A stretch of 1,103 bases of DNA from Escherichia coli (GTDB lineage Bacteria > Pseudomonadota > Gammaproteobacteria > Enterobacterales > Enterobacteriaceae): the NCBI RefSeq assembly GCF_003334255.1, contig NZ_QOWU01000174.1; one strand, given 5' to 3'. Below are positions 3 to 1,103 of the stretch, in pieces; positions within the stretch are counted from its first letter, which is position 1; the number at the start of each line of letters is the position of its first letter. The notes under the pieces were generated by a model that searched no databases, was not told the origin of the DNA, and saw only the letters and a list, made by a program, of their open reading frames with translations. Position numbers and translations under genes: made by a program.

Positions 3-27
3 GTAAGCGTACAGCCTGAACCGTCTG
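3..27 (+). repeat. Putative left terminal inverted repeat (IRL) of the IS66-family element; inner boundary approximate
   Basis: Begins GTAAGCGTACAGCCTGAACCGTCTG. IS66-family termini characteristically start 5'-GTAA. The matching right IR is outside the window, so the length cannot be confirmed. Confidence 0.5.
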
Positions 28-73
28 GTCAGAATCTGACGAATTAGACAAAGTGGTGTCCACCAAATAAGTA
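28..73 (+). promoter_or_regulatory. Leader / putative promoter-operator region upstream of tnpA
   Basis: Holds two short palindromes: GTCAG-aat-CTGAC at 28..40 and TGGTG-tc-CACCA at 54..65. CTGACG at 35..40 is a weak -35-like hexamer. I found no convincing -10 hexamer, so promoter placement is uncertain. Confidence 0.3.
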
Positions 74-475
74 GTGGGAACCAAAGTGTCAGATATGCAG
101 AAAAATGTGACTCCCGGCAGGCGAAAAGGCTGCCCTAATTATCCTCCCGAATTTAAACAGCAGCTCGTTGCTGCCTCCTGTGAACCCGGGATATCCATCT
201 CAAAACTTGCTCTTGAAAATGGCATTAACGCCAATCTGTTGTTCAAATGGCGACAACAATGGCGCGAGGGAAAGCTGCTATTACCTTCTTCAGAGAGCCC
301 CCAGCTACTTCCTGTGACTCTCGATGCAACTGCCGAACAGCCAGAATCGCTCGCAGAGGACCCGGAAACCCTCAGTATCAGCTGTGAGGTAACGTTCCGG
401 CACGGGACGCTCCGCTTCAATGGCAATGTCAGCGAAAAGCTCCTGACTCTGCTGATACAGGAACTGAAGCGATGA
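74..475 (+). CDS. tnpA: IS66-family OrfA/TnpA, small helix-turn-helix accessory protein (133 aa from the GTG at 74; true start may be GTG 86 or ATG 95)
   Basis: ORF 74..475 in frame 2. The segment ISKLALENGINANLLFKWRQQW looks like an HTH, and the C-terminus is leucine-rich (KLLTLLIQELKR). It is first in the operon and its TGA stop overlaps the tnpB ATG. GGGA at 77..80 lies 5 nt upstream of the in-frame GTG at 86, a plausible Shine-Dalgarno; the in-frame ATG at 95 is another candidate. Confidence 0.85.
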   Translation: MGTKVSDMQKNVTPGRRKGCPNYPPEFKQQLVAASCEPGISISKLALENGINANLLFKWRQQWREGKLLLPSSESPQLLPVTLDATAEQPESLAEDPETLSISCEVTFRHGTLRFNGNVSEKLLTLLIQELKR

Positions 476-819
476 TCCCGTTACCTTCCGGGACCAAAAT
501 TTGGCTGGTTGCCGGTATCACCGATATGAGAAATGGCTTCAACGGCCTGGCTGCGAAAGTACAGACGGCGCTGGAAGACGATCCCATGTCCGGCCATGTT
601 TTCATTTTCCGGGGCCGCAGCGGCAGTCAGGGTAAACTGCTGTGGTCCACCGGTGACGGGCTGTGCCTCCTGACCAAACGGCTGGAGCGTGGGCGCTTCG
701 CCTGGCCGTCAGCCCGTGATGGCAAAGTGTTCCTTACACAGGCGCAGCTGGCGATGCTGCTGGAAGGTATCGACTGGCGACAGCCTAAGCGGCTGCTGAC
801 CTCCCTGACCATGCTGTAA
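472..819 (+). CDS. tnpB: IS66-family OrfB/TnpB accessory protein (115 aa)
   Basis: ORF 472..819 in frame 1: MIPLPSGTKIWLVAGITDMRNGFNGLAAKV...RQPKRLLTSLTML. Size and sequence match my recollection of IS66 Orf2/TnpB. The ATG at 472 overlaps the tnpA TGA at 473..475. AGGA at 459..462 is a plausible RBS 9 nt upstream. Stop is TAA at 817..819. This protein is unrelated to the IS200/IS605 TnpB nuclease. Confidence 0.9.
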   Translation: MIPLPSGTKIWLVAGITDMRNGFNGLAAKVQTALEDDPMSGHVFIFRGRSGSQGKLLWSTGDGLCLLTKRLERGRFAWPSARDGKVFLTQAQLAMLLEGIDWRQPKRLLTSLTML

Positions 820-844
820 ATCTCTTTATCCTGGTTGTCACAGA

Positions 845-870
845 ATAAGCCCGGTAAAATACGGGCTTAT
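845..870 (+). promoter_or_regulatory. Perfect stem-loop (9-bp stem, 8-nt loop) overlapping the tnpC start codon
   Basis: ATAAGCCCG at 845..853 pairs with CGGGCTTAT at 862..870; the loop is GTAAAATA at 854..861. The 3' arm includes the A and T of the tnpC ATG (869..871) and the only SD-like GGG (863..865). No U-tract follows, so it is not a typical intrinsic terminator. Confidence 0.55.
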
Positions 871-1103
871 GAACGACATCTCTTCTGACGACATCCTCCT
901 GCTGAAACAGCGCCTGGCCGAACAGGAAGCGCTGATCCACGCCCTGCAGGAAAAGCTGAGCAACCGGGAGCGCGAAATAGACCATCTGCAGGCGCAGCTG
1001 GATAAACTCCGCCGGATGAACTTCGGCAGTCGTTCCGAAAAAGTCTCCCGCCGTATCGCACAAATGGAAGCCGATCTGAACCGGCTTCAGAAAGAGAGCG
1101 ATA
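869..1103 (+). CDS. tnpC: IS66-family transposase OrfC/TnpC, N-terminal fragment (5' partial; runs off the window)
   Basis: Open frame from ATG 869 to the window end with no stop: MNDISSDDILLLKQRLAEQEALIHALQEKLSNREREIDHLQAQLDKLRRMNFGSRSEKVSRRIAQMEADLNRLQKESD. Hydrophobic residues recur at 3-4 spacing (I9, L12, L16, I23, L26, L30, I37, L40, L44, L47), suggesting a coiled coil. It is absent from the ORF track only because it has no stop within the window. Confidence 0.85.
   Translation, partial: MNDISSDDILLLKQRLAEQEALIHALQEKLSNREREIDHLQAQLDKLRRMNFGSRSEKVSRRIAQMEADLNRLQKESD

Follow-up and report, generated by a model that had tools for sequence, protein, structure and literature searches.

A 1.1-kb left end of an ISEc8-type IS66-family insertion sequence is shared by structurally different elements

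Classic members of the IS66 family of insertion sequences have three open reading frames, which encode TnpA, TnpB and a DDE transposase (PMC12888890), and the family is recognized by inverted repeats of 20–30 bp that start with GTAAGCG and by 8-bp direct repeats (PMC11946415). For the family member ISEc8, the ORFs L0013, L0014 and L0015 were given as 133, 115 and 512 amino acids in a plasmid paper (PMC2762410), and peptides of E. coli IS66-type TnpC proteins have been reported to bind the beta sliding clamp (PMC3971601). Here, we analysed a stretch of 1,103 nucleotides, referred to as the window, which with very little doubt begins with two bases of target DNA and continues with the left 1,101 nt of an ISEc8-type IS66-family insertion sequence. 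The window thus belongs to an already known, catalogued and very common mobile element of E. coli and its relatives, and is ordinary in this respect. We assigned the name ISEc8 from RefSeq product names and from the ORF sizes in PMC2762410. The window contains the following features:

1–2, no strand assigned: target flank TG, with the element boundary at base 3 in copies at other sites and in the full-length copy L002
3–1103, plus strand: left 1,101 nt of an ISEc8-type IS66-family element with a canonical full length of 2,442 bp; 99.8% identity to annotated E. coli copies, limits taken from insertions with 8-bp duplications
3–24, plus strand: left terminal repeat (IRL) GTAAGCGTACAGCCTGAACCGT, matching the canonical right end at 18 of 22 positions, the terminal 13 perfectly; from the IRL/IRR comparison in L002
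74–475 (GTG start, 133 aa) or 95–475 (ATG start, 126 aa), plus strand: tnpA (orf1, L0013), encoding a helix-turn-helix accessory protein; NF047595 and PF01527
472–475, plus strand: ATGA overlap of the tnpA stop and the tnpB start; read from the sequence and the ORF coordinates
472–819, plus strand: tnpB (orf2, L0014), encoding an IS66-type accessory protein of 115 aa; NF033819 and PF05717
820–868, plus strand: tnpB–tnpC spacer of 49 nt; alignment A1
845–871, plus strand: hairpin with a 9-bp stem and an 8-nt loop (ATAAGCCCG / GTAAAATA / CGGGCTTAT + G); folding energy
869–1103, plus strand: 5' part of tnpC (orf3, L0015), the first 78 codons of a 512-aa DDE transposase; ATG at 869, frame open to the window end

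By megablast, 3,826 of 5,426 complete E. coli genomes contain matches to the window, at 15,537 places of which 12,868 are chromosomal and 2,669 lie on plasmids; the median number of places per positive genome is 3, and the highest is 31. The best identity is 99.8%, to regions annotated as tnpA/tnpB/tnpC or as 'IS66-like element ISEc8 family transposase'. In PLSDB, matches were found on 3,541 plasmids, the majority of them from Escherichia and Klebsiella; 2,368 of the 3,541 are conjugative. An earlier note on this DNA had described the window as the left end of an IS66-family element with the genes tnpA-tnpB-tnpC, and as a known mobile element rather than a novel system, pointing to a GTAA terminus and to a ~130-aa HTH OrfA, a 115-aa OrfB and an OrfC all on one strand. 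Our comparison confirms the family and the status of the element, with near-identical copies being annotated as IS66-like TnpA, IS66 TnpB and ISEc8 family transposase and with 99.8% identity to thousands of annotated copies. The underlying observations hold as well: the three reading frames share one strand and had been given accurate coordinates, and the GTAA terminus GTAAGCGTACAGC starts at window base 3, in agreement with the insertion junctions of full copies.

The boundary between target and element can be placed by comparison with copies inserted elsewhere. For H9, H18 and H19, all of them at other sites, the alignment to the window begins at base 3, and in L002, a copy from E. coli 2013C-3264, the element boundary falls between ...CCAGAATG and GTAAGCG. 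L002 interrupts gcl, with ...cgcgCCAGAATG adjoining GTAAGCGT... at one junction and ...ACGCTTAC adjoining CCAGAATGtgac... at the other; accordingly, the element measures 2,442 bp and begins exactly at window base 3. The terminal repeats of L002 show the 18 of 22 matches and the perfect terminal 13 listed above, and 8 bp of its target are duplicated. Terminal repeats of the IS66 type (~20–30 bp, 5'-GTAAGCG) are found at the left end of the window as well as at the right ends of full copies. The TG flank probably represents the last two bases of an 8-bp target duplication.

Perfect 8-bp duplications were found at 16 distinct sites, occupied by copies having this left end or belonging to the family. 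Six of these sites come from E. coli, Salmonella and plasmid copies, L002 included, and the remaining ten from viral contigs, where they were found by a scan with the bare left terminus. A preference for TG beside the left end was considered, given that TG ends four of the six duplications sampled from E. coli and plasmids, but the flank-independent scan yielded TG at 2 of 37 sites. We rejected this preference because the sample of six had been ranked by a query that itself contains TG, making the enrichment a ranking artefact. The flank-independent sample comprises the 20 nt upstream of the left end in L021–L071, which represent 37 distinct sites. Within the duplicated 8 bp of this sample we observed mild biases, namely A at position -4 in 22 of 37 sites (nominal p = 0.001, among 20 tests), as well as A/T in 31 of the 37 sites at -6 and G/C in 26 of the 37 at -1 (nominal, among the same 20 tests). 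Separately, the gcl target CAGAATGTGACGAAT (L002 6446–6460) matches the subterminal element sequence CAGAATCTGACGAAT (window 30–44) at 14 of 15 bases, a single case that could reflect either chance or the choice of end-like targets.

The two accessory genes are well supported by profile searches. For tnpA, RefSeq usually takes the ATG at 95 as the start, giving 126 aa, and one record takes the longer form. TnpA reaches 96.9 bits with NF047595 (IS66_ISRel24_TnpA; IS66-like element accessory protein TnpA), the cutoff being 74, and matches PF01527 (HTH_Tnp_1) at 3.8e-12. TnpB reaches 115.4 bits with NF033819 (IS66 family accessory protein TnpB), the cutoff being 50, and matches PF05717 (TnpB_IS66) at 3.2e-37; a PDB sequence search with TnpB returned only non-significant MUS81 matches (E ≈ 0.09). 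The ATGA overlap that joins the two genes is the arrangement expected for translational coupling of tnpA and tnpB. Two other family assignments were examined and discarded. Membership in the IS3 family is contradicted by the TnpA helix-turn-helix, which matches NF033516 only below threshold (20.7 bits against a cutoff of 160), and by the downstream genes, which are TnpB_IS66 and DDE_Tnp_IS66 and not an rve-type DDE enzyme produced via a -1 frameshift. Likewise, the 115-aa protein matches TnpB_IS66 only, and not the TnpB of IS200/IS605 elements, an RNA-guided nuclease of the RuvC-like OrfB_IS605 type (~400 aa) that is found beside a Y1 transposase. The name TnpB being common to IS66 and IS200/IS605 elements is a coincidence, in agreement with the RefSeq note.

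Scans for further elements in the window gave nothing that exceeds chance. The minus-strand reading frames at 139–426 and 785–1063 lie wholly within well-supported sense genes and are attributed to chance, as is the sole Rfam match, a sub-threshold hit to isrJ (20.7 bits against 37, E = 0.39) that runs antisense over 472–537. A promoter scan of the left end found no sigma-70-like promoter, and a terminator scan returned a single terminator-like site, which is within expectation.

The part of tnpC contained in the window encodes a coiled-coil N-terminus that extends into the LZ_Tnp_IS66 domain (residues 39–110). The 78-aa TnpC fragment alone gave no significant family match in the NCBIfam profile search, and it was therefore identified through its nucleotide identity to full-length copies. 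TnpC of L002 has 512 aa and shows LZ_Tnp_IS66 at 39–110 (4.8e-14), zf-IS66 at 119–161 (3.5e-13), DDE_Tnp_IS66 at 175–461 (5.1e-106) and DDE_Tnp_IS66_C (3.4e-16). All four IS66 transposase domains are carried by the 512-aa TnpC of full copies that are at least 99.5% identical over the window. Following the element to the right, a check that had been proposed for the window and was made on near-identical copies, yields ~1.34 kb that hold the rest of the 512-aa DDE_Tnp_IS66 transposase and a right repeat ending in CGCTTAC. A PDB sequence search with TnpC returned no match.

Between tnpB and tnpC, the spacer contains two features of potential regulatory relevance. The first is a 13-nt block, TCTTTATCCTGGT at 823–835, that shows no variation among the ten aligned copies, which extend down to 79% identity, with neighbouring positions being variable. 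This block may serve tnpC as a promoter, as a site for ribosome access or as a protein-binding site. The second is the hairpin at 845–871, the 3' arm of which includes the first two bases (AT) of the tnpC start codon. Its folding energy is -20.1 kcal/mol with z = -3.75 when calculated on the 71-nt stretch 815–885 of the window copy, and -19.1 kcal/mol on the 46-nt stretch 835–880 of the window, L001 and L002. Relatives of 86–92% identity keep the hairpin with one compensatory change from C-G to U-A, one wobble pair and one mismatch, and the ISEc22/ISKpn24 branch does not keep it. We also examined covariation as support for the hairpin and rejected it as not significant, there being one compensatory pair and a value that 150 of 500 column shuffles reach. 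Because of this result, and because the ISEc22/ISKpn24 branch is without the stem, selection for the hairpin structure is unproven. The hairpin and the 13-nt block may together form a cis-acting switch that, in the ISEc8 lineage, keeps translation of TnpC below that of TnpA and TnpB, an idea that we regard as rather doubtful and for which we found no prior report in the literature searched.

To the right of the window, the element is less uniform. Left ends that are at least 99.5% identical to the window join three right parts: that of canonical ISEc8, that of an ISEc22-type mosaic, and that of a derivative with an in-frame deletion of 153 bp. No sampled copy is identical to the window, the best having 2 mismatches. 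This distance is shown by L001, L011 and L012, all of which are mosaic and occupy one chromosomal locus, iol/helicase, in the strains AZ146, STO_Bone1B and N2512; none of the three has a target duplication. The mosaic (L001 4003–6444) consists of ~1.5 kb of ISEc8 on the left and ~0.8 kb on the right that agrees with the ISEc22 copy L008 over most of its length; of the last five 150-nt alignment windows, four are 100% identical and one is 94.7% identical. Compared to canonical ISEc8, it has 116 differences over the last 942 nt, and its right end reads ...GGTTCTTGCTGCACGCTTAC, the canonical one in L002 being ...GGCCCTCGCTGTACGCTTAC. Canonical copies of 2,442 bp differ from the window at 3–6 positions. 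The third form measures 2,289 bp, its deletion removing TnpC residues ~401–451 with the conserved EIDNNIAENALR segment, and differs from the window by 4–5 mismatches in E. coli copies and by 17 in one viral-contig copy. We found this form at no fewer than three sites (L015/L016 1503–3791, L019 1501–3789 and one viral contig), one of them with a perfect 8-bp duplication (TTTAGAGC). Because this derivative is found at several sites, one having a perfect duplication, our data suggest that it was moved in trans by full-length copies. Judging from these sequences, IS66-family elements of Enterobacteriaceae are mosaic.

We compared the individual bases of the window with these three forms. Five variants stand out, namely 329A (TnpA T79 in the 126-aa numbering), 574G (TnpB E35), 632G (TnpB G54), 738A (synonymous) and 896C (TnpC L10), and in none of the sampled copies do all five occur together. 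The bases 574G and 632G are common to the window and the mosaic, whereas K35 and V54 are present in every canonical copy sampled. The variant 329A was seen only in the canonical-type copies L014 and L018, and 738A only in the 2,289-bp copies L015 and L016. This combination is compatible with sequence exchange among copies, or with an origin from a genome that the collections do not include.

The most plausible alternative is that the window represents the left end of an ISEc8/ISEc22 mosaic, in which case the element would still be of the IS66 family and would use the same mechanism, with a different TnpC C-terminus and right repeat. The three closest copies, at 2 mismatches, are all mosaic, and TnpB E35 and G54 are shared with them as opposed to the canonical K35 and V54. 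On the other hand, those three copies sit at one locus and count as one event, and with 329A being restricted to canonical-type copies and 738A to the 2,289-bp variant, the substitutions follow no one lineage. We consider a mosaic quite possible, though short of probable. It is unlikely that the window belongs to a defective copy, either a 2,289-bp derivative or an element truncated or interrupted further to the right, that would be unable to move by itself. Such copies do exist close by: the left 1.1 kb of the 2,289-bp derivative is just 4–5 mismatches away in E. coli and occurs at no fewer than three sites, plasmids commonly carry truncated relatives, with L005, L006 and L007 having no tnpA and/or tnpC, and a place covering at least 80% of the window is present in 3,611 of 5,394 matching E. 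coli records. However, the three frames are open in the window, with no frameshift or stop relative to full-length copies, and the majority of sampled near-identical copies are full length. A chance resemblance, with three ORFs and a GTAA end arising in ordinary chromosomal DNA, can be dismissed outright in view of profile E-values of 1e-27 to 3e-37 with scores exceeding the curated cutoffs, and of the thousands of mobile copies, at various sites and with target duplications, to which the window is 99.8% identical at the nucleotide level.

Taken as the left end of an ISEc8-type element, the window therefore gives no inference as to its right-end type or intactness, because its variants are drawn from canonical, mosaic and deletion copies. 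The earlier note had held that intactness could not be judged from the window, and this view is strengthened by our finding the same left end on three structurally different elements.

Regarding transposition of the ISEc8-type element, TnpC would bind both terminal repeats, cut the element ends and join them to target DNA cut with an 8-bp stagger, the repair of which would give rise to the 8-bp target duplication. TnpA and TnpB would be made jointly via translational coupling and serve as accessory factors. These steps are modelled on the IS66 family and on DDE transposases generally; the gene layout, the ATGA overlap, the termini and the duplications were observed directly. All three genes are reportedly required for IS679 transposition, a result ascribed to Han et al. 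in 2001. To our knowledge, neither the biochemical role of TnpB nor the question of donor excision versus copying has been settled for the IS66 family. A 2026 paper states that IS66-family mechanisms 'remain insufficiently characterized' (PMC12898284).

The window is of little importance in itself, ISEc8 being catalogued and carried by most complete E. coli genomes as well as by many conjugative plasmids. Its practical use is that of an insertion-site marker and of a repeat that breaks short-read assemblies. In annotation, such sequence should be labelled as mobile DNA, and since this left end is joined to at least three different right parts, its presence should not by itself be taken as evidence of an intact transposase.

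Among described systems, ISEc8 of E. coli O157:H7 EDL933 (L0013/L0014/L0015) is one of the closest to the window. Over its length, the window is 99.5% nucleotide-identical to RefSeq-labelled ISEc8 copies, and the ORF sizes of 133, 115 and 512 aa are identical to those found here, the value of 512 being taken from full copies. The left terminus, the ATGA overlap and the 49-nt spacer are all as in the window. The 3–6 substitutions that separate canonical ISEc8 from the window result in TnpB K35E and V54G and, in some comparisons, TnpA A79T (126-aa numbering) and TnpC F10L. The right 55% of the ISEc8-type element (1.34 kb, beyond the window) varies between copies. The nearest sampled sequence is the mosaic L001 of E. 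coli AZ146 (NZ_CP018991.1), which has 2 mismatches in 1,103 positions including the TG flank and is without the window's 329A and 738A. More distant are ISEc22 and ISKpn24 from Enterobacteriaceae plasmids, which have the three-gene layout and the GTAAGCG termini of the window. The first ~0.6 kb of ISEc22, comprising the IRL and tnpA, is 98–99% identical to ISEc8, whereas for ISEc22/ISKpn24 identity falls to ~75–85% across tnpB, the spacer and the 5' portion of tnpC, and the spacer hairpin of ISEc8 is lost. Finally, the founding members IS679 and IS66, which have been studied experimentally, differ from the window element in sequence and host; compared by family description, they share with it the three ORFs, the GTAAGCG repeats and the 8-bp duplications.
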